This document shows, in pieces, positions 23,959 to 30,579 of a DNA stretch of 64,000 nucleotides. A program made the translations under genes and the position numbers. The stretch's first letter is position 1, and each line of letters starts with the position of its first letter. Source of the DNA: a virus; IMG/VR virus record IMGVR_UViG_3300045974_000166, positions 128,098 to 192,097 of that record, one strand, 5' to 3'. The notes beneath the pieces are model-generated. The model was not told where the DNA came from and did no database searches. It saw only the letters and a program-made list of their open reading frames with translations.

Positions 23959-24050
23959 GAACTCGTAGTGATGGAATTGGTAGACATAGGGCCCTTTCCG
24001 GGTCCTGCCGTAAAAAGCGTACAGGTTCGAGTCCTGTCTACAATGAGTTC
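23959..24050 (+). pseudogene. class II tRNA-like element without CCA, extended terminal stem
   Basis: Leu-type D-arm GGAATTGGTAGAC, GGGCC-CTTTCCG-GGTCC, ACAGG-TTCGAGT-CCTGT, GAACTC/GAGTTC. Confidence 0.55.
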
Positions 24051-24051
24051 G

Positions 24052-24161
24052 CATTTTAAAGTATTCTGCAACGGCCGATTGTGGTCAAATAGACGAAGAG
24101 CGTATAAGGTTGGTACCAACCTAAATCCCAGTAGGTTTATGAAGTAGAATGCTTTAAAATG
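24052..24161 (+). ncRNA. long-stem element B6
   Basis: CATTTTAAAGTATTCTGC / GTAGAATGCTTTAAAATG. Confidence 0.6.
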
Positions 24162-24283
24162 ATTTCAATCCACAATCCTCGCTCATCTGGGGATTACAAT
24201 ATGGGAATTAACCCTAAATGCGATGAGGCATTGACATCCTGTAAGGGTGTATAGCTTGAATTAACAGGGTGGATCGAAATGAT

Positions 24284-24433
24284 TTTATAGTTGAAGGCAT
24301 TGCACTATCTGAGAAACACATCAGTAGGGTTGCTCCTACACCGGTGTGAAAAGTCGGAATTCGTTCTTCGCAGAGTTCAATAACCGTATTGGGACGAAGG
24401 TAAAGTGTTTTGAACAGTGCCTTCAACTATAAA
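24284..24433 (+). ncRNA. long-stem element B7, multi-hairpin cargo
   Basis: TTTATAGTTGAAGGCATTG / CAGTGCCTTCAACTATAAA. Confidence 0.6.
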
Positions 24434-24435
24434 TA
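24428..24435 (+). promoter_or_regulatory. T4-type late promoter
   Basis: TATAAATA 7 nt before tRNA-Ala. Confidence 0.55.
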
Positions 24436-24442
24436 GAAATAT

Positions 24443-24518
24443 GGGCTGGTAGTGATACTGGGGTACACGAGGCACTTGCAATGCTTAGATTGGAGTTCGA
24501 TCCTCCACCGGTCCACCA
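24443..24518 (+). tRNA. tRNA-Ala(TGC)
   Basis: loop CTTGCAA, G3:U70, CCA. Confidence 0.92.
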
Positions 24519-24525
24519 AAAATTT

Positions 24526-24597
24526 GCGGGTTGTTTGTGGAATACGTTTAGCCTTCCAAGCTGAAAGATGCAGGTTCGAACCCTGTAGCCCGCTCCA
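24526..24597 (+). tRNA. tRNA-Gly(TCC)
   Basis: loop CTTCCAA, U73, CCA; short D-arm. Confidence 0.88.
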
Positions 24598-24606
24598 CTT
24601 TAATGA

Positions 24607-24683
24607 GTCCCAGTAGCCGAATAGGTATAGGCAGCTGTCTTAAAAGCAGTAATCTGTGGGTTCGAGTCCCACTTGGGACACCA
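24607..24683 (+). tRNA. tRNA-Leu(TAA), short variable arm
   Basis: loop CTTAAAA, A73, CCA. Confidence 0.85.
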
Positions 24684-24690
24684 AGAATAA

Positions 24691-24766
24691 GCCAATGTGG
24701 GACAGGGGTTGTCCAGCTGATTGTCTATCAGCCTTTATGACGGTTCGAGTCCGTTCGTTGGCGCCA
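24691..24766 (+). tRNA. tRNA-Asp(GTC)
   Basis: loop TTGTCTA, G73, CCA. Confidence 0.85.
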
Positions 24767-24771
24767 AGTTA

Positions 24772-24830
24772 AGGATCAGTTCAGCAAAAACTAAAAACTT
24801 TGAATCATTCTCAAACTAAAAGTTGATCCT
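24772..24830 (+). ncRNA. Y-RNA-like element Y1
   Basis: AGGATCA-GTTCAGCAA ... TGATCCT-GTT. Confidence 0.6.
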
Positions 24831-24835
24831 GTTAA

Positions 24836-24864
24836 TTTACACATATTGATGAATGTTTTATAAT
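24836..24864 (+). promoter_or_regulatory. early promoter
   Basis: TTTACA-17-TATAAT. Confidence 0.85.
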
Positions 24865-24889
24865 AACACATCAAATACGGAATTGCAAA

Positions 24890-25054
24890 ATGATTAAAGT
24901 TAACATGAAACAAATGAAAAATTGGAAGGTTACTTCTGATAACGTTAAATTCTATGACTCAATCATGAAAACAAAAGGTTCTGTAGTTACTTTAGACAAA
25001 AGACCTTATGTTGAATTACTTTGTGAGTTCAACATAATGTTTACGGCAAAATAA
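24890..25054 (+). CDS. 54-aa hypothetical protein in RNA array
   Basis: read by hand, between two promoters, GGA RBS. Confidence 0.55.
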   Translation: MIKVNMKQMKNWKVTSDNVKFYDSIMKTKGSVVTLDKRPYVELLCEFNIMFTAK

Positions 25055-25083
25055 TTTACACATAATATGGAATGATTTTAAAT
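25055..25083 (+). promoter_or_regulatory. early promoter variant
   Basis: TTTACA-17-TTAAAT. Confidence 0.65.
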
Positions 25084-25092
25084 CATTCCATC

Positions 25093-25134
25093 CAATCAAA
25101 CATCGCTTTGATTGACTAGGTTCATTAAAAAGTT
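25093..25134 (+). promoter_or_regulatory. boxB-like hairpin plus boxA-like element
   Basis: CAATCAAA-CATCGC-TTTGATTG then GTTCATTAAAAA. Confidence 0.55.
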
Positions 25135-25174
25135 ATTGAAGGATTTTCTGTGTTGACACTTAGTTGGCACAGAG

Positions 25175-25263
25175 ATCATTCCGAAGCATAAAGCAACCGT
25201 GGCAGAGATCGTCACAACTAACCATGGAATAGATGTGTTGCTCCATGTATGCTTCGGAATGAT
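25175..25263 (+). ncRNA. long-stem element B8
   Basis: 16-bp ATCATTCCGAAGCATA / TATGCTTCGGAATGAT. Confidence 0.6.
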
Positions 25264-25270
25264 GAATATT

Positions 25271-25356
25271 GGAGTAGACGCCTGAGTGGAAGGGCTCCCG
25301 GCTGTAACCCGGAGGACAGTAATGCTGTGTAGGTTCGAACCCTACCTGCTCCACCA
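25271..25356 (+). tRNA. tRNA-Tyr(GTA)
   Basis: loop CTGTAAC, long V-arm, CCA. Confidence 0.92.
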
Positions 25357-25363
25357 ATTTTAT

Positions 25364-25442
25364 TGACCATAAGCCGACAAGGTGTTAGGCGCTTGACTGT
25401 TAATCAAGAATGAGGTAGGTTCGATTCCTACATGGTCAGCCA
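25364..25442 (+). tRNA. tRNA-Asn(GTT)
   Basis: loop CTGTTAA, G73, CCA. Confidence 0.92.
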
Positions 25443-25448
25443 AGTTAT

Positions 25449-25706
25449 TTCGTTGTAGTATAGAGGAAGGTAGAGTAGTATTGAGTATGTGAGATAAGGC
25501 ATCTAGTAGTGCAAAGTAGATAACAATCGCGTAGGCTTAAAAAAACCAAACACTGTGAGCCGGGGAAGTGCCGGACAGGTTGAAATGCATGAAGAGTGAG
25601 ATAAGGCGCAGAGGGGATATGAGGGTAACTTTGGGAAATACACGGGCCACCCAGCATACGCGATTTTGGGCCCTAGTCGCAGGTTCGAGCCCTGCCAATG
25701 AAGCCA
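25449..25706 (+). ncRNA. 258-nt tRNA-shaped RNA with about 176-nt D-loop insertion
   Basis: TTCGTTG/CAATGAA-GCCA acceptor, GTAT/ATAC D-stem, GGGCC/GGCCC stem, GCAGG-TTCGAGC-CCTGC. Confidence 0.6.
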
Positions 25707-25709
25707 AGT

Positions 25710-25862
25710 TTTGAAGTGTAGATGTTGAGAACACAGGAACTCGAAAGCCCTGTAAGCAGATTTAGCGATCTATGTACCAACTATTACTACGTATCTCTAA
25801 CCCACCGCGGCTAGTATTCATGGGTAAAATGGTTCCGAATGAGGGAGACGGAACACTTCAAA
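25710..25862 (+). ncRNA. long-stem element B9
   Basis: TTTGAAGTGT / ACACTTCAAA enclosing four hairpins. Confidence 0.5.
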
Positions 25863-25871
25863 TTCATTTTT

Positions 25872-25926
25872 AGGTTCCGTTCAGCAAATTCAAAAATTTC
25901 ACTTTTAATGAAAAAATAAGGAACCT
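25872..25926 (+). ncRNA. Y-RNA-like element Y2 with Lys anticodon stem-loop
   Basis: AGGTTCC-GTTCAGCAA ... TTTCA-CTTTTAA-TGAAA ... GGAACCT-GTT. Confidence 0.65.
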
Positions 25927-25934
25927 GTTATTTT

Positions 25935-26010
25935 AGCCTTGTATTCAATCGTAGTTGAAACCTCTCTCATAAAGAGGATATAGGCGGTTAGACTCCGTCC
26001 TAGGCCACCA
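25935..26010 (+). tRNA. tRNA(CAT), Met or Ile2
   Basis: loop CTCATAA, A1:C72 mismatch, CCA. Confidence 0.8.
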
Positions 26011-26011
26011 A

Positions 26012-26386
26012 ATACTAAGTTGTTTGCTAGTAGTAGAGTAGATGGAAACCGAGCCGGAAAGATGTTCCGGTCTTCACAGAAATGTGACAAACGATAAGCA
26101 AAGTCGGTCCAGTAGGGAGTCGAAAGCAAACAATGGCGGAAAGACCTGCCGAGGACAGAAGTTAAGATCATACACAGACGGCCCACATGGTACCGACTGG
26201 CAATTCGATCCTAACGCCGTGTATTCCTTCCCAAATTGAATCAAGTGGAAAGCAAGAGCCACAAAGTAAATGTTAGATGATCATGGCTGCTCGGTCATCT
26301 TTGCTGTGATACACGGCGTCAGTTGTCCGCAAGGGTAGCAATTGAGAAACAACGGGGTAAGAATCCCAACTAAGAGTATGCCTCCA
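26012..26386 (+). ncRNA. candidate large structured RNA, about 375 nt
   Basis: long-range helices 26214-26224/26309-26319 and 26102-26108/26192-26198, terminal stem, GGG-GTAAGAAT-CCC, ends CCA. Confidence 0.6.
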
Positions 26387-26392
26387 ATTTTC

Positions 26393-26467
26393 ACCGCGTT
26401 CGACTTCTGGTGAGGTCAACAGCCTTTCAAGCTGTGTAGACGGGCTCGAAACCCGTACGCGGTACCA
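26393..26467 (+). tRNA. tRNA-Glu(TTC)
   Basis: loop CTTTCAA, T-loop CTCGAAA, CCA. Confidence 0.9.
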
Positions 26468-26470
26468 ACA

Positions 26471-26520
26471 TTTGAAGACGCCAAGGTTACCTGCACCATA
26501 ACGGCAAGCAGGACTTCAAA
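26471..26520 (+). ncRNA. small stem-closed element B10
   Basis: TTTGAAG/CTTCAAA with inner CCTGC/GCAGG. Confidence 0.35.
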
Positions 26521-26528
26521 TTCAATTC

Positions 26529-26602
26529 GCCTATGTAGCTCAATGGTAGAGCAATCGACTGATAATCGATCGACGAAGGTCCGATTCCTTACGTAGGCAC
26601 CA
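26529..26602 (+). tRNA. tRNA-Ile(GAT)
   Basis: loop CTGATAA, CCA. Confidence 0.92.
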
Positions 26603-26607
26603 AATAT

Positions 26608-26685
26608 GAGGCGTGAGCTAGTGTGGTCATTCAGCGACGGTCTGAAAAGCCGTAGAACAAGGTCCGATTCCTTGACGCCCCACCA
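26608..26685 (+). tRNA. tRNA-Phe(GAA)
   Basis: loop CTGAAAA, CCA. Confidence 0.9.
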
Positions 26686-26692
26686 AAGTTAT

Positions 26693-26785
26693 GGAGATGT
26701 GGTCGAGTCTGGTTTATGGCAACGGTCTTGAAAACCGTCGGGGACTAACCCTCCCCCGTGAGTTCGAATCTCACCGTCTCCGCCA
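26693..26785 (+). tRNA. tRNA-Ser(TGA)
   Basis: loop CTTGAAA, long V-arm, G73, CCA. Confidence 0.93.
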
Positions 26786-26793
26786 AAATTTAT

Positions 26794-26867
26794 GCACTTA
26801 GAGCCGGTTGGATAGGCAGCGGATTGCAAACCCGTGTAACTCAGTTCGATTCTGAGTAGGTGTTCCA
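26794..26867 (+). tRNA. tRNA-Cys(GCA)
   Basis: loop TTGCAAA, U73, CCA. Confidence 0.92.
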
Positions 26868-26873
26868 GTATTT

Positions 26874-26947
26874 CTCGGTATAGTTTAATAGTAGAATTTA
26901 TGCTTTGGGAGCATGGGATGGGGGTGCGATTCCTCCTACCGAGACCA
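26874..26947 (+). tRNA. tRNA-Pro(TGG)
   Basis: loop TTTGGGA, C1:G72, A73, CCA. Confidence 0.9.
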
Positions 26948-26953
26948 ATTTAA

Positions 26954-27030
26954 CAGTATGTGGTGACAAGTGGACGTCGACTAGTTTTGGAAACTAGAAT
27001 ATATCGGTTCGAGGCCGATCATACTGACCA
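26954..27030 (+). tRNA. tRNA-Pro(TGG), second copy with A37
   Basis: loop TTTGGAA, C1:G72, A73, CCA. Confidence 0.85.
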
Positions 27031-27131
27031 TTTTAAGTAAGACATTCGGGTTGACCACAAGGCCACGTGCCAAGGTAAGGTGTCTGAAGTATAAGCAACA
27101 GGTTTGGTCATGCTTATGCACGAAAAAGTTT

Positions 27132-27209
27132 TGAGTAGTTACAGCAATTAATAAAATCTGGCTGAGGGTTTCGATTTCCCTCTTTAATCAAAAAGTAGAT
27201 CACTACTCA
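27132..27209 (+). ncRNA. Y-RNA-like element Y3 with T-arm cargo
   Basis: TGAGTAG-TTACAGCAA ... GAGGG-TTTCGATTT-CCCTC ... CTACTCA-GTT. Confidence 0.6.
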
Positions 27210-27219
27210 GTTATATTAC

Positions 27220-27294
27220 CTGCCATTCGTATAGTGAATAATACAACTTTCTTCTAAAGAGTGAACGGGAGTTTGATTCTCTCATGGCGGACCA
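27220..27294 (+). tRNA. tRNA-Arg(TCT)
   Basis: loop CTTCTAA, CCA. Confidence 0.88.
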
Positions 27295-27318
27295 AAGATC
27301 ATTAAGAATAAAAATAAC

Positions 27319-27326
27319 TATAAATA
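27319..27326 (+). promoter_or_regulatory. T4-type late promoter
   Basis: TATAAATA 8 nt before tRNA-Gly. Confidence 0.6.
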
Positions 27327-27334
27327 GTAAGTAT

Positions 27335-27408
27335 GTGGGGTTAGTTAAATGGTAGAACCAAACGTTGCCAACGTTTAGACACGGGTCCGATTCCCGTACC
27401 TCACACCA
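27335..27408 (+). tRNA. tRNA-Gly(GCC)
   Basis: loop TTGCCAA, CCA; A73 atypical. Confidence 0.88.
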
Positions 27409-27413
27409 AATTT

Positions 27414-27488
27414 GCTCTCAAAGCATAGACAGCGATGCAGGGGTCTTGTAAGCCTCAGAGTAGGGCGCAAGTCCTTATGGGAGCACCA
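27414..27488 (+). tRNA. tRNA-Thr(TGT)
   Basis: loop CTTGTAA, T-loop CGCAAGT, CCA. Confidence 0.88.
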
Positions 27489-27493
27489 AATTA

Positions 27494-27567
27494 CGCAGGT
27501 AGTGTAGCCAACAATCCTCTCTCATAAGGACGGATCATCGGAGGTGCGAATCCTTCACCTGCACCCA
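27494..27567 (+). tRNA. initiator-like tRNA-Met(CAT), degenerate D-arm
   Basis: C1:A72 mismatch, loop CTCATAA, CCA. Confidence 0.7.
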
Positions 27568-27592
27568 TTTAATCATAGAAAGGCATCATATC

Positions 27593-28156
27593 ATGAATAG
27601 GTATCCATTAGTGCTAACACTAGATTCTGCAGGTATTCCGCAGAGATGGTCTACCTGGGAAGAAGGTGTCGTGGCAAAATACAAAGGCGTTATCGCTTGG
27701 TCACTTGGTGAAGAAACCATCTACCGGGGCGGTAACTCAAGACTTACTGGCGAACAATCAACCGTAGCAGTTCCATCTATTATTGCTATTCGATCTATGG
27801 GTCGTACAAAGAACCGAGCAGTGCCACTTACAAACAAGAATTTGTTTGGGCGTGACCGGAACATTTGTTGTTACTGTGGTACTCATGTGAAAGATCATGA
27901 CGCTACACGTGACCATATTGTTCCGTATGCTAAGAAAGGTACGAACGTTTGGATGAATGTTGTTACTGCATGTAAGCCTTGCAATAACTATAAGGATGAC
28001 AAAACTGTAGAACAAGCTGGGCTAGAGATGCTATATGCACCTTATGTCCCAGATCGTGCAGAAGCTTTGATTCTTGCCAACCGTAACATTTTGGCAGATC
28101 AAATGGAATTCTTATTGGCACATTTGCCTAAGCATTCTCGGGCACGACCACATTAG
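27593..28156 (+). CDS. HNH endonuclease (McrA/HNH_5-like)
   Basis: NLFGRDRNICCYCG, TRDHIVP, NVVTACKPCNNYK. Confidence 0.92.
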   Translation: MNRYPLVLTLDSAGIPQRWSTWEEGVVAKYKGVIAWSLGEETIYRGGNSRLTGEQSTVAVPSIIAIRSMGRTKNRAVPLTNKNLFGRDRNICCYCGTHVKDHDATRDHIVPYAKKGTNVWMNVVTACKPCNNYKDDKTVEQAGLEMLYAPYVPDRAEALILANRNILADQMEFLLAHLPKHSRARPH

Positions 28157-28245
28157 GGGTGTGGGCAGGATGGTAATGCAGCGGTTTGCTAAACCGTAGA
28201 GTCCCTCAAAAGGCTCACAGGGTCCGATTCCCTGACACTCCGCCA
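28156..28245 (+). tRNA. tRNA-Ser(GCT)
   Basis: loop TTGCTAA, long V-arm, G73, CCA. Confidence 0.92.
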
Positions 28246-28250
28246 ATTTT

Positions 28251-28362
28251 AGGATCAGTTCAGCATTTAATATACCAAGCAGCTTGTTGTGAGTTCGATT
28301 CTCACCTTCCGAGTAATCGGTTGTAGTTCAACGGTAGAACAGCCGCCAATTAAAGTGATCCT
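28251..28362 (+). ncRNA. Y-RNA-like element Y4, YrlA-type circularly permuted tRNA module
   Basis: AGGATCA-GTTCAGCA; T-arm GTGAG-TTCGATT-CTCAC; acceptor closed by CCGA-GTAA-TCGG; TA-GTTC-AACGGTA-GAAC D-arm; TGATCCT. Confidence 0.8.
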
Positions 28363-28373
28363 GCTAAATATAC

Positions 28374-28449
28374 TGGGGGTTTGTCATTTGGTAATGACAC
28401 TGCGCTTTGACCGCAGGAAAGTCGGGTCCGATTCCCACACCCTCTGCCA
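28374..28449 (+). tRNA. tRNA-Gln(TTG)
   Basis: loop CTTTGAC, G73, CCA. Confidence 0.88.
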
Positions 28450-28484
28450 ACATTATTGATTTTTAACTAGATGGAGTACTCCAA

Positions 28485-28637
28485 ATGAAAGATAGAAGTG
28501 TGAAACATAAAGAAGCCCTGAGCCGTAACACGGAATGGGCAAAACTTTCCCCTACTGAGCAATTAGCTCAACTGGATAAGTTGGGTTTGGTAGCAACCAA
28601 ACAGCGAAAGAAAATTGCTGCTAAAATGGCAGCTTGA
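28485..28637 (+). CDS. 50-aa basic hypothetical protein
   Basis: read by hand, GGAG RBS. Confidence 0.65.
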   Translation: MKDRSVKHKEALSRNTEWAKLSPTEQLAQLDKLGLVATKQRKKIAAKMAA

Positions 28638-28644
28638 GATATAC

Positions 28645-28718
28645 AGGTGGTTGGTGTAATGGCAACATTGCGGTCTCCAAAATCGTCGATCGGGGTTCGA
28701 GTCCCTGGCTGCCTGCCA
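28645..28718 (+). tRNA. tRNA-Trp(CCA)
   Basis: loop CTCCAAA, G73, CCA. Confidence 0.9.
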
Positions 28719-28731
28719 AGACAATTTAGGT

Positions 28732-28804
28732 GTGGCCTTATCATAAAAGTAATGACCTAGGCTGTGAACTTAGTTAAGAGGGAGCATTACCCTCAGGTCA
28801 CCCC
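28732..28804 (+). tRNA. tRNA-His(GTG), no encoded CCA
   Basis: loop CTGTGAA, C73, T-loop AGCATTA. Confidence 0.8.
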
Positions 28805-28816
28805 TAAATTGTTTTT

Positions 28817-28893
28817 GCGGATGTGGCGAAATTGGTAAACGCAGCGGTCTTAGAAGCCGTAGGCTGTGGGTTCGAGTCCCACCATCCGCACCA
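28817..28893 (+). tRNA. tRNA-Leu(TAG), short variable arm
   Basis: loop CTTAGAA, Leu-type D-loop, A73, CCA. Confidence 0.9.
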
Positions 28894-28970
28894 AAATTTA
28901 CGGGGAGCAACTAATCATTGCCGCTATATGTCCATACCCCGTGGGTATAGTGTTTCCCTGTAAAACTTAC

Positions 28971-29045
28971 ATCTCTGTAGTACAACGGAAAGTATCTAAG
29001 TTTGCGAAACTTAAGACGGTGGTTCGACTCCACCCAGAGGTACCA
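28971..29045 (+). tRNA. tRNA-Arg(GCG)
   Basis: loop TTGCGAA, CCA. Confidence 0.85.
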
Positions 29046-29061
29046 TCATTAAAGGAAAATC

Positions 29062-29250
29062 ATGAAAAAACTTATCGCTCTCATTACATTGGCTTTTGCC
29101 TCTACCGCTTTTGCTGCTGCTTCGGCACCTCGCGTACATGTACAACTCAAGGTTGCTCAGCCACCAGTCCAAGCAGCTGTTAATGAAACAAAACTAAAGC
29201 AGCGTGCTGCTAAGTTGGCCAAGGCCAAGGCTAAAGCCGCTTCTAAGTAA
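29062..29250 (+). CDS. small secreted Ala/Lys-rich protein
   Basis: signal peptide MKKLIALITLAFASTAFA, AAAGGA RBS. Confidence 0.75.
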   Translation: MKKLIALITLAFASTAFAAASAPRVHVQLKVAQPPVQAAVNETKLKQRAAKLAKAKAKAASK

Positions 29251-29321
29251 GAAGTACTCCGACACAGATACTGTATCTCGTCTGTGTTGGGGAGGGTGGA
29301 ATACAGCCACCCGAGAGATAC

Positions 29322-29398
29322 GTCCATGTAGCCGAATTGGTATAGGCACCTGTTTCAAAAGCAGTCATCTGTGGGTTCGAGTCCCACCTTGGACACCA
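29322..29398 (+). tRNA. tRNA-Leu(CAA), short variable arm
   Basis: loop TTCAAAA; paralogue of the 24607 tRNA; CCA. Confidence 0.82.
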
Positions 29399-29408
29399 AC
29401 CAAATTAT

Positions 29409-29483
29409 GCGCGGGTAGCTCAGAGGAAGAGCAACTCTTTTACACGGAGAAGGTCGAGATTTCAAAATTCTCCCTGCGCACCA
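29409..29483 (+). tRNA. tRNA-Val(TAC)
   Basis: loop TTTACAC, CCA. Confidence 0.88.
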
Positions 29484-29491
29484 AAACATTA

Positions 29492-29566
29492 GGGTCGTTA
29501 GTACAACGAATAGTATCATTGTCTTCGAAACAATAGATAAAGGTTTGACTCCTTTACGACCCCCCA
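29492..29566 (+). tRNA. tRNA-Arg(TCG)
   Basis: loop CTTCGAA, C73 atypical, CCA. Confidence 0.85.
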
Positions 29567-29571
29567 ACATC

Positions 29572-29646
29572 GCCCAGTTATTTCAGTGGTAGTAATAAAT
29601 CTTTGGTAAGGATTAGACGGGGGTTCGATTCCCCCACAGGGCACCA
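29572..29646 (+). tRNA. tRNA-Thr(GGT)
   Basis: loop TTGGTAA, CCA. Confidence 0.88.
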
Positions 29647-29652
29647 AATAAA

Positions 29653-29737
29653 GCGAATGTGGCGTAACTGGTAGCCGCGCTAGTCTAAGAAGCTAGTGGA
29701 GAAATCCGTGTCGGTTCGAGTCCGACCATTCGCACCA
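29653..29737 (+). tRNA. tRNA-Leu(AAG), A34
   Basis: CTAGT-CTAAGAA-GCTAG, long V-arm, A73, CCA. Confidence 0.88.
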
Positions 29738-29743
29738 TATTAA

Positions 29744-29772
29744 TGTACACATACTTCTGAGTATAGTATAAT
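29744..29772 (+). promoter_or_regulatory. early promoter variant
   Basis: TGTACA-17-TATAAT. Confidence 0.7.
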
Positions 29773-29798: not shown

Positions 29799-30158
29799 AT
29801 GCTTTTAACATCTCTTATTGTCAGTGTTCACCTTTTAAGTCTTCACGATGCGCCTGGATTTCAGGCCGTTACTCCCGGACTTAGTATTCGTGAACCCGAA
29901 ACTGGTTTGACTGTTGGGATACTCAAAAATTCCGAAGGCGGAGATTCAGTATTCGCCGGCAAACTTATGGAACACAAAAACTATGGACTATTCATTGGTG
30001 CAATCACAGGATACAAATCTGCATCTGTGCTCCCAATGGTTGTCCCTAGTTACAAAATTAACCTAGCCAATGATGTTAATCTGCGGTTTAGTTATTTGGC
30101 CAAGGTTAACTCCAATGGCGCAAATGCAATTCACTTTTCAATTGAAAAGAAATTTTAA
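29799..30158 (+). CDS. small exported beta-rich protein, possible outer-membrane barrel
   Basis: hydrophobic N-terminus, TPGL, GAITGY, C-terminal Phe. Confidence 0.6.
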   Translation: MLLTSLIVSVHLLSLHDAPGFQAVTPGLSIREPETGLTVGILKNSEGGDSVFAGKLMEHKNYGLFIGAITGYKSASVLPMVVPSYKINLANDVNLRFSYLAKVNSNGANAIHFSIEKKF

Positions 30159-30173
30159 TCAAGGAAAATCAAA

Positions 30174-30194
30174 ATGAAAACTAGTAAACGCTAG
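30174..30194 (+). other. mini-ORF MKTSKR with two AAA codons
   Basis: AAGGA RBS; ATG AAA ACT AGT AAA CGC TAG followed by a hairpin. Confidence 0.45.
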
Positions 30195-30256
30195 TGTCAT
30201 TACTCAACCCCGTGTAGGTTCTGTGATGGCACGTAAAAGAAATTTTATACACATCA

Positions 30257-30331
30257 CCACCCTAAACTTTGATAGTGAAGTCCGGCCTCTTAAGCCGAGA
30301 GAACTCAGTGCAATTCTGAGAGAGTGGACCA
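30257..30331 (+). tRNA. tRNA-Lys(CTT)
   Basis: loop CTCTTAA, T-loop TGCAATT, CCA. Confidence 0.85.
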
Positions 30332-30336
30332 TACAC

Positions 30337-30410
30337 GGGGTTGAAACTTTAAAGTGAAGTACCGGTCTTTTAAACCGGCTAATTCGGAGCGTTACCGAAC
30401 TACCCTACCA
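30337..30410 (+). tRNA. tRNA-Lys(TTT)
   Basis: loop CTTTTAA, T-loop AGCGTTA, CCA. Confidence 0.85.
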
Positions 30411-30505
30411 TATCTAAATACACTATCGTTTGATCAACGACGCTTGGAGCTACCGGAACAGCATGCACCGGGTGAGGTTCGATTCCTCTAGTGTATTTAG
30501 ATATG
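30409..30505 (+). ncRNA. long-stem element B11 with tRNA-like cargo
   Basis: 17-bp CATATCTAAATACACTA / TAGTGTATTTAGATATG; inner GAGG-TTCGATT-CCTC. Confidence 0.6.
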
Positions 30506-30579
30506 GTACAGTAGCATTAAGATAATGCAACATCTTCATACGGTGTCCTAAGTGGGTTTGATTCCCACCCGTACCACCA
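30505..30579 (+). tRNA. tRNA(CAT), Met or Ile2
   Basis: loop TTCATAC, CCA. Confidence 0.85.

Follow-up and report, generated by a model that had tools for sequence, protein, structure and literature searches.

Leader-peptide transcription attenuators, among them trpL, hisL, pheL, thrL and pheM of pheST, combine a short open reading frame (ORF) driven by a Shine-Dalgarno sequence, codons that match the regulated pathway, and mutually exclusive helices overlapping the end of the ORF, and the position of the ribosome chooses the fold. In the ermC and cat leaders, a drug stalls the ribosome on a short ORF, and the hairpin behind it refolds so that a ribosome-binding site becomes accessible. T-box riboswitches (RF00230) are tied to tRNA supply, and a UGGN-type sequence in them pairs with the NCCA 3′ end. 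In designed RNase P riboswitches, sequestration of the tRNA 5′ leader controls RNase P cleavage in Escherichia coli (Ender et al., PMC8925977). tRNA-Lys is the target of PrrC (PMC10264068) and of PARIS AriB, and the tRNA-Lys of phage T5 rescues infection (PMC11464382). Why phages carry tRNAs, and whether these tRNAs are regulated, are open questions. Here, we describe a compact module (~250 nt), abundant in freshwater phage sequences, that precedes two phage tRNA-Lys genes and appears to be a tRNA operon’s own demand sensor.

The window (the whole stretch of DNA analyzed, 64,000 nt) forms the final 64 kb of an IMG/VR phage record of 192 kb, and the promoter-like site and the module described below lie on its plus strand. 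It contains a tRNA array of 24 genes (23962 to 29737; ARAGORN), with an HNH endonuclease ORF inside the array (27593 to 28156; phrog_16726, E = 4e-20), and the module lies downstream of this array. A promoter-like sequence, TGTACA-17 nt-TATAAT (29744 to 29772; 10/12 consensus matches, a consensus match only), is found upstream of both an ORF at 29799 to 30158 and the leader, and is the probable start of the transcript carrying the leader. The same TGTACA-N17-TATAAT occurs in a relative (L015, 2984 to 3012) directly before the leader; in the window, the 119-amino-acid ORF (weak PagP-like match, phrog_3600, E = 8.6e-7) stands between the motif and the leader.

The leader opens with a Shine-Dalgarno sequence, AAGGA (30161 to 30165), 8 nt before the ATG of a mini-ORF that reads directly as ATG AAA ACT AGT AAA CGC TAG (30174 to 30194; MKTSKR-stop). 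Its two lysine AAA codons are codon 2 (30177 to 30179) and the second-to-last sense codon (30186 to 30188). Hairpin H1 (30194 to 30232) begins at G30194 of the stop codon and has a lower stem of 10 bp (30194 to 30203 with 30223 to 30232), a 4-bp apical stem and an antisense arm in its apex (−16.2 kcal/mol; z = −3.8). The first-pass annotation had proposed both an ORF with two AAA codons driven by a ribosome-binding site and a hairpin starting at its stop codon; each was found where it had been placed, and the stem was corrected to the pairing given above.

The antisense arm (30204 to 30221) forms the 5′ strand of a long-range helix, P3. TCAACCCCGTGTA (30204 to 30216) is the exact reverse complement of TACACGGGGTTGA (30332 to 30344), which consists of the 5-nt spacer and the first 8 nt of tRNA(UUU), in agreement with the earlier claim of a 13-nt arm against the leader and acceptor strand of this tRNA. 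The helix extends further than had been claimed: GGUUC (30217 to 30221) pairs with GGACC (30326 to 30330), with A30331 bulged, giving 18 bp in total and covering also the 3′ end of the first tRNA (CUU). The 3′ strand, at the junction of the two tRNAs (30326 to 30344), thus comprises G71, G72, A73, C74 and C75 of tRNA(CUU), the bulged A30331, TACAC, and positions +1 to +8 of tRNA(UUU). In shuffled sequence, a perfect 13-mer inverted repeat within 200 nt is expected 0.13 times per window.

A second hairpin, H2 (30223 to 30257), was absent from the first reading. It is formed by 30223 to 30228 with 30252 to 30257 and 30233 to 30238 with 30243 to 30248 (−8.5 kcal/mol; z = −4.0), and it ends on nucleotide +1 of tRNA(CUU). 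Since H1 and H2 share 30223 to 30228, the two are mutually exclusive.

Two tRNA-Lys genes had been reported behind this leader. The second, tRNA-Lys(UUU) (30337 to 30410; anticodon 30369 to 30371, G1.U72, encoded CCA, T loop AGCGTTA), passes the Rfam tRNA model RF00005 (35.7 bits against a threshold of 29), the cloverleaf is its minimum free energy (MFE) fold, and three relatives (L013, L014 and L015) show compensatory changes in its anticodon, T and acceptor stems; ARAGORN misses it. The first, tRNA-Lys(CUU)-like gene (30257 to 30331; anticodon 30289 to 30291, encoded CCA) falls outside the general tRNA model and is listed by neither ARAGORN nor Rfam, yet its cloverleaf is the MFE fold, and relatives have homologous tRNA-Lys(CUU) genes that ARAGORN does call. 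Its acceptor stem starts with C1-G72 and C2-G71, the cloverleaf contains two C.A mismatches, and the T loop (TGCAATT) is non-canonical. A tRNA(CAU) of Met or Ile2 type (30505 to 30579; RF00005, 44 bits over 30505 to 30576), overlooked by ARAGORN, marks the end of the module.

Both tRNA-Lys genes of the window have altered elbow loops (CUU gene, D loop TGATAGTG and the T loop above; UUU gene, D loop TAAAGTG). In L015, the CUU gene is identical to that of the window, and the UUU gene has slightly different loops of the same type (D loop TAAGGTG, T loop ATCGTTA); judged from these sequences, the changes look kept rather than decaying.

Relatives were collected with a search pattern in which TAG, both strands of H1 and AAAGA are the only fixed elements and the mini-ORF and the tRNAs are left unspecified. 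Its matches number more than 119 among viral contigs and more than 120 among metagenome contigs, and well over 170 uncultured phage sequences besides the window share the layout; the breadth of these matches makes the window copy a diverged member of a large family. Contig names and the listed sequencing runs (pond, wetland) indicate a mostly freshwater family, and no RNA run was among the runs listed as carrying the sequence. In cellular genomes (596 Gb), the same pattern gave eight chance matches with neither ORF nor tRNA and three true members, all on contigs of metagenome-assembled genomes (MAGs; bins Haliscomenobacter, Bacteroidetes and Polynucleobacter), which are too few to name a host. 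None of the GenBank phage isolates carries the leader, and one Vibrio phage matches at the tRNA level alone. Nine loci were reached through the downstream 230-amino-acid protein, none with the leader adjoining; the upstream 119-amino-acid ORF led to no locus, and an exact T-arm pattern had no match in metagenomes.

The mini-ORF was conserved almost throughout this family. An in-frame ATG ORF of 6 to 9 codons (MK..K.*) is present in 177 of the 181 distinct pattern matches with enough flank, and the three conservation checks named by the first-pass annotation (mini-ORF, AAA codons and compensatory pairing) were all positive, with over 140 distinct sequences covered. Between ATGAAR and TAG lie 18, 21, 24 or 27 nt, in frame in 176/176, and a Shine-Dalgarno 4-mer (AGGA, GGAG or GAGG) stands 5 to 9 nt before the ATG in 145/177 members amid otherwise divergent sequence. 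The lysine codons are held equally firmly: codon 2 is AAA (167 times) or AAG (9 times) in 176/177, and the second-to-last sense codon is AAA in 176/177. The codons elsewhere are variable, and the arginine and serine codons vary synonymously. Common peptides are MKRSGKR, MKRAKR, MKRSAKR and MKRKSRKL, beside the MKTSKR type of the window, which lacks the arginine at codon 3; the two lysines are the sole residues kept across all types. A tmRNA-like gene was rejected, given the Shine-Dalgarno sequence and ATG and the lack of an Rfam match, as was recoding of the TAG, given that indel lengths in the hairpin are not divisible by 3 and that the window has no suppressor tRNA.

If the product itself mattered, either as a functional basic hexa- to nonapeptide or through peptidyl-tRNA drop-off that ties up tRNA in the manner of lambda bar (phage minigenes with drop-off effects are known), conservation of the lysine and arginine positions would be understandable. 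We consider this very improbable: the peptides differ in the length and make-up of their middle part, the last residue may be R, L, Q, P or M, and the three covarying pairings that join the stop codon of the ORF to the tRNA ends would be left unexplained.

The tRNA that follows bears on whether lysine is being read. The first downstream tRNA is tRNA-Lys in 173/177 members (CUU followed by UUU in 148), and the remaining four, the window included, are ARAGORN misses; no other recurrent mini-ORF leader was found before any of ~3,900 tRNA genes (262 loci), nor did the tRNA array of the window hold a further one. On these sequence counts, tRNA-Lys is almost the only partner of the element. This association, and the two lysines as the only residues common to all peptide types (MKTSKR included), weigh against a mini-ORF that would depend on translation without being specific for lysine, serving just to load ribosomes for the timing of folding, 5′ protection or coupling to transcription, with its lysine codons standing for A-rich, initiation-friendly sequence or an RNA motif UAAAC. 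In favor of such a role, AAA is the commonest initiation-favoring second codon, and the base after the second AAA is a C in ~170/177 members whatever the amino acid, which speaks for selection at the nucleotide rather than the codon level at this position. On balance, we judge it improbable. The C begins the last sense codon as CGN, CTN, CAG or CCN, keeping AAAC (30186 to 30191 in the window); its retention across four amino acids hints at an RNA-level constraint that a lysine-sensing switch leaves unexplained.

Both hairpins are supported by covariation, computed on a 143-sequence alignment. For H1, 95% of cells are paired; double-sided changes number 119, compared with 36.5 for shuffles (0/500 as high), and slid controls reach at most 48% pairing. 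Because the search pattern fixes six H1 pairs, this covariation comes from the remaining seven. The lower helix of H2 is 93% paired, and its 3′ strand covers the first 1 to 3 nt of tRNA(CUU) across the family. In column 79, the change from A to U is matched by changes in column 50, its H1 partner, and in column 117, its H2 partner, a three-way covariation characteristic, at the level of sequence, of alternative pairing. The G.U pairs, some invariant and others frequent, show that the pairings act in RNA of the plus strand.

P3 is likewise a family feature, in which the H1 apex pairs with G71-G72-A73-CCA of tRNA(CUU), a 3- to 6-nt spacer and the first ~6 nt of tRNA(UUU). The continuous duplex has a median of 15 bp against 5 to 7 bp in shuffled junctions. 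A comparison of cognate and non-cognate arm/junction duplexes separated them poorly (mean, 8.7 versus 7.5 bp) because most members share a C-run/G-run core, and a position-anchored pairing count was used in its place. Counted from the CCA, positions −5 to +9 show pairing in 77 to 100% of 110 distinct sequences; the spacer positions show several pair types (AU, UA, GU, CG and GC), and a slide by one base leaves only 8 to 18% pairing there. Close relatives show compensatory change in P3: where the window has C:G, L013 has A:U, and the leader helix of L014 is an entirely different one. A permuted or split tRNA, with upstream CAACCCC as the true 3′ strand, was rejected, as the tRNA has its own covarying 3′ strand.

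The three close relatives, found by exact DNA patterns, have unrelated flanks, yet their 21-nt ORF is identical to that of the window save for AGT/AGC, and compensatory changes keep each arm able to pair with the leader and 5′ strand of tRNA(UUU). L015 has the layout of the window. L014 (450 to 600) has only tRNA(UUU) behind the leader, with no tRNA(CUU). L013 (13298 to 13360) carries a deletion by which the hairpin, reduced to its 5′ half, runs straight into the D arm of tRNA(CUU); its tRNA(CUU) is truncated and its antisense arm permanently free. A partial duplication of the tRNA 5′ half, suggested by L013, was dismissed when L014 and L015 showed L013 to be a deletion variant.

Some features of these relatives are recorded here as observations. 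The deletion in L013 (~54 nt) removes H2 entirely, along with the 3′ half of H1 and, in tRNA(CUU), the 5′ acceptor and D-stem strand; the arm retains 10 bp of complementarity to tRNA(UUU). In L014, the arm pairs with tRNA(UUU) in two helices (7 and 8 bp) whose sequences are unlike those of the window and which both lie fully inside H1. The MKTSKR subfamily, and it alone, has a small hairpin inside the mini-ORF (ACTAGT-AAAC-GCTAGT; 30180 to 30195), in which the AGT/AGC difference between relatives is a change from U.G to C-G.

We propose that the module is a ribosome-read leader-peptide lock on the phage tRNA-Lys(CUU)-tRNA-Lys(UUU) precursor, a reading to which we give an even chance of being right. 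During transcription, H1 would form first as an anti-lock, occupying both the arm and the strand shared with H2, and as long as H1 stayed intact both tRNAs would fold, RNase P would cut and the ends would be trimmed. The 5′ strand of H1 would be the sole part within reach of a ribosome on the mini-ORF. With undelayed decoding of lysine, the ribosome would arrive at the stop codon and melt the lower stem of H1 in full; the strand common to both hairpins would pass into H2 and the arm into P3 (the lock), neither acceptor stem would form, and the precursor would go unmatured. A ribosome awaiting Lys-tRNA at the second-to-last codon would halt just short of H1 and leave it intact. Slow decoding of lysine, whether because AAA codons are in high demand or because an anticodon nuclease has depleted host tRNA-Lys, would thus raise the output of phage tRNA-Lys.

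The spacing of the element is consistent with such a lock. In E. coli, a ribosome with TAG in the A site covers ~12 nt downstream, a geometry that may differ in the hosts here; by the same geometry, we take the edge of a ribosome with the second-to-last AAA in its A site to lie at about the first base of H1. This geometry would explain an invariant AAA-NNN-TAG-H1 spacing while the rest of the ORF changes length. One point goes against the switch: the sensed AAA is read by tRNA(UUU), yet the first tRNA under control is CUU.

Folding calculations with nearest-neighbor energies place the locked state at the energy minimum. The MFE fold of the full precursor contains P3 in 131/146 members, with the acceptor stem of tRNA(UUU) unformed in 132/146; when H1 is enforced, both acceptor stems are native in most members, at a median cost of 5.2 kcal/mol (15.3 kcal/mol in the window, which otherwise folds as the family does). 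H-type pseudoknots follow loop-length rules, and a P3 of 15 to 18 bp cannot coexist with a closed lower stem of H1 because the connecting loops have only 0 to 2 nt. In simulated transcript growth, H1 is the MFE fold in 146/147 members when just made, in ~55/147 once H2 is possible and in 0/147 once the junction exists. The locked fold is therefore the computed ground state without a ribosome, and the proposed lock needs H1 to act as a kinetic trap. Moreover, H2 beats H1 in MFE before the junction exists in ~60% of members, and hence a ribosome may be unnecessary for locking. The interpretation of the first-pass annotation, that the leader may be a tRNA-Lys-sensing switch, is supported on comparative and thermodynamic grounds.

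A ground state of this kind would also be expected of a constitutive structure, such as a processing scaffold in which P3, H2 and a further hairpin (hairpin 3) serve as handles for RNase III or a phage nuclease that cuts at the spacer and after the CCA. In this scheme, translation of the mini-ORF would either open H1 to promote cutting or be irrelevant, and the duplexes would aid tRNA production. The first-pass annotation had itself allowed for a constitutive processing stem. Hairpin 3 (30406 to 30508) has a 20-bp stem in the window (30406 to 30425 with 30489 to 30508; −43.1 kcal/mol, z = −7.0) that occupies U72, A73 and CCA of tRNA(UUU) and the first 4 nt of tRNA(CAU), and a near-perfect stem of 15 to 22 bp starts at the tRNA(UUU) CCA in 108/116 distinct family members. 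As it ties up this CCA in both states of the module, some nuclease must remove it, and a processing role for the long duplexes is plausible. Further in keeping with a scaffold, a typical P3 has 6 + 3 + 6 bp with the spacer at the center of the duplex, and ACCAUAU stands at both tRNA 3′ ends within long duplexes. Against it, P3 and H2 take 6 to 8 nt and 1 to 3 nt, respectively, of the mature acceptor strands, which excludes the tRNA fold, unlike known processing stems, which to our knowledge are built from flanking sequence. A scaffold would leave the mini-ORF, its fixed lysine codon and the H1/H2 alternative unexplained, and a 3-nt spacer needs no added nuclease, RNase P and 3′ trimming being enough (PMC2190699). 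We regard a scaffold as unlikely.

The ribosome-read lock can be placed among the systems introduced above. Three of the four defining features of leader-peptide attenuators are present, namely, a leader ORF with a ribosome-binding site, lysine codons cognate to tRNA-Lys, and the exclusive helices H1 and H2, and in the proposed model the position of the ribosome would likewise choose the fold. The fourth is absent: no terminator-like site was found on the plus strand between 29650 and 30900, and a tRNA follows directly after H2. The module would thus work in the manner of an attenuator and is not one. Unlike attenuators, it has helices that end in mature tRNA ends, so that its output would be tRNA folding and processing rather than read-through; its regulated product is the very class of molecule that is sensed; and it has two lysine codons, one of them fixed in position, in place of a run. 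Unlike ermC and cat, it controls no downstream ORF. The UGGU of the arm pairs with ACCA much as in a T-box, with the differences that the pairing is in cis with the precursor, that covariation reaches into the spacer, and that the module has no specifier loop, T-box sequence, terminator or antiterminator. The T-box model gave no Rfam match, with E values allowed up to 10 for the window and up to 1 for a canonical member (L110). No Rfam 15 family covered the leader either in the window (30160 to 30257) or in L110, the sole listing over the window leader being a chance-level drum RNA (minus strand; 15.8 bits, threshold 43; E = 5). Full-text literature searches turned up no account of tRNA genes preceded by a leader peptide or switch. 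Designed RNase P riboswitches are synthetic and controlled by theophylline, whereas the module is natural, would be controlled by the ribosome, and captures bases of the acceptor strand as well as the CCA end of two tRNAs. If it works as proposed, it would add a new output class to ribosome-mediated RNA switches and be a natural counterpart to those designs, with the logic of an amino-acid attenuator acting on tRNA folding and processing instead of on transcription; its compactness should make transfer to a laboratory strain or cell-free system easy.

Loss of host tRNA-Lys as the sensed event is our inference. Attack on tRNA-Lys by PrrC or PARIS is a plausible selective setting, but simple control by supply and demand would fit just as well. 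The T5 and PrrC cases have in common with this locus a phage tRNA-Lys that could replace an attacked host tRNA-Lys; unlike here, no regulatory leader has been described for those tRNAs, and the words “leader” and “promoter” do not occur in PMC10264068. An inducible counter-defense, in which stalling at AAA would be the sign of a PrrC- or PARIS-like attack and only then would the locked, possibly nuclease-resistant tRNA-Lys pair be released, is a doubtful extension of the lock. Were it true, the module would provide the first natural example of a leader peptide governing tRNA maturation and the first phage system to sense a tRNA-targeting defense through translation itself. The lock, if real, would make testable the deployment of phage tRNA-Lys on demand and upon cleavage of host tRNA-Lys.

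Several minor features of the tRNA genes and their surroundings were noted. tRNA(CUU) starts with C1-C2, paired to G71-G72, in 146/148 members, these being the bases that H2 and P3 capture, and the tRNA(CUU) bodies behind the same leader fall into several very different D-arm and anticodon-stem types. ACCA followed by TAT occurs after both tRNA-Lys genes in most members (30329 to 30338 and 30408 to 30413 in the window), and the usual family junction, CCATATGG, is a palindrome that includes CATATG. A sigma-54 promoter at TGGCAC was rejected for want of a −12 element. For hairpin 3, an integron attC site or a miniature inverted-repeat element (MITE) is disfavored by its G.U-tolerant, strand-specific pairing and its conserved start at the CCA. 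The interiors of hairpin 3 are entirely different between relatives, the 3′ strand of its stem ending 38 to 240 nt past tRNA(UUU). In the window, the interior (30426 to 30488) contains a canonical T arm, GAGG-TTCGATT-CCTC (30474 to 30488), just before the 3′ strand of the stem, and from its sequence it looks like the remnant of a tRNA-like insert.
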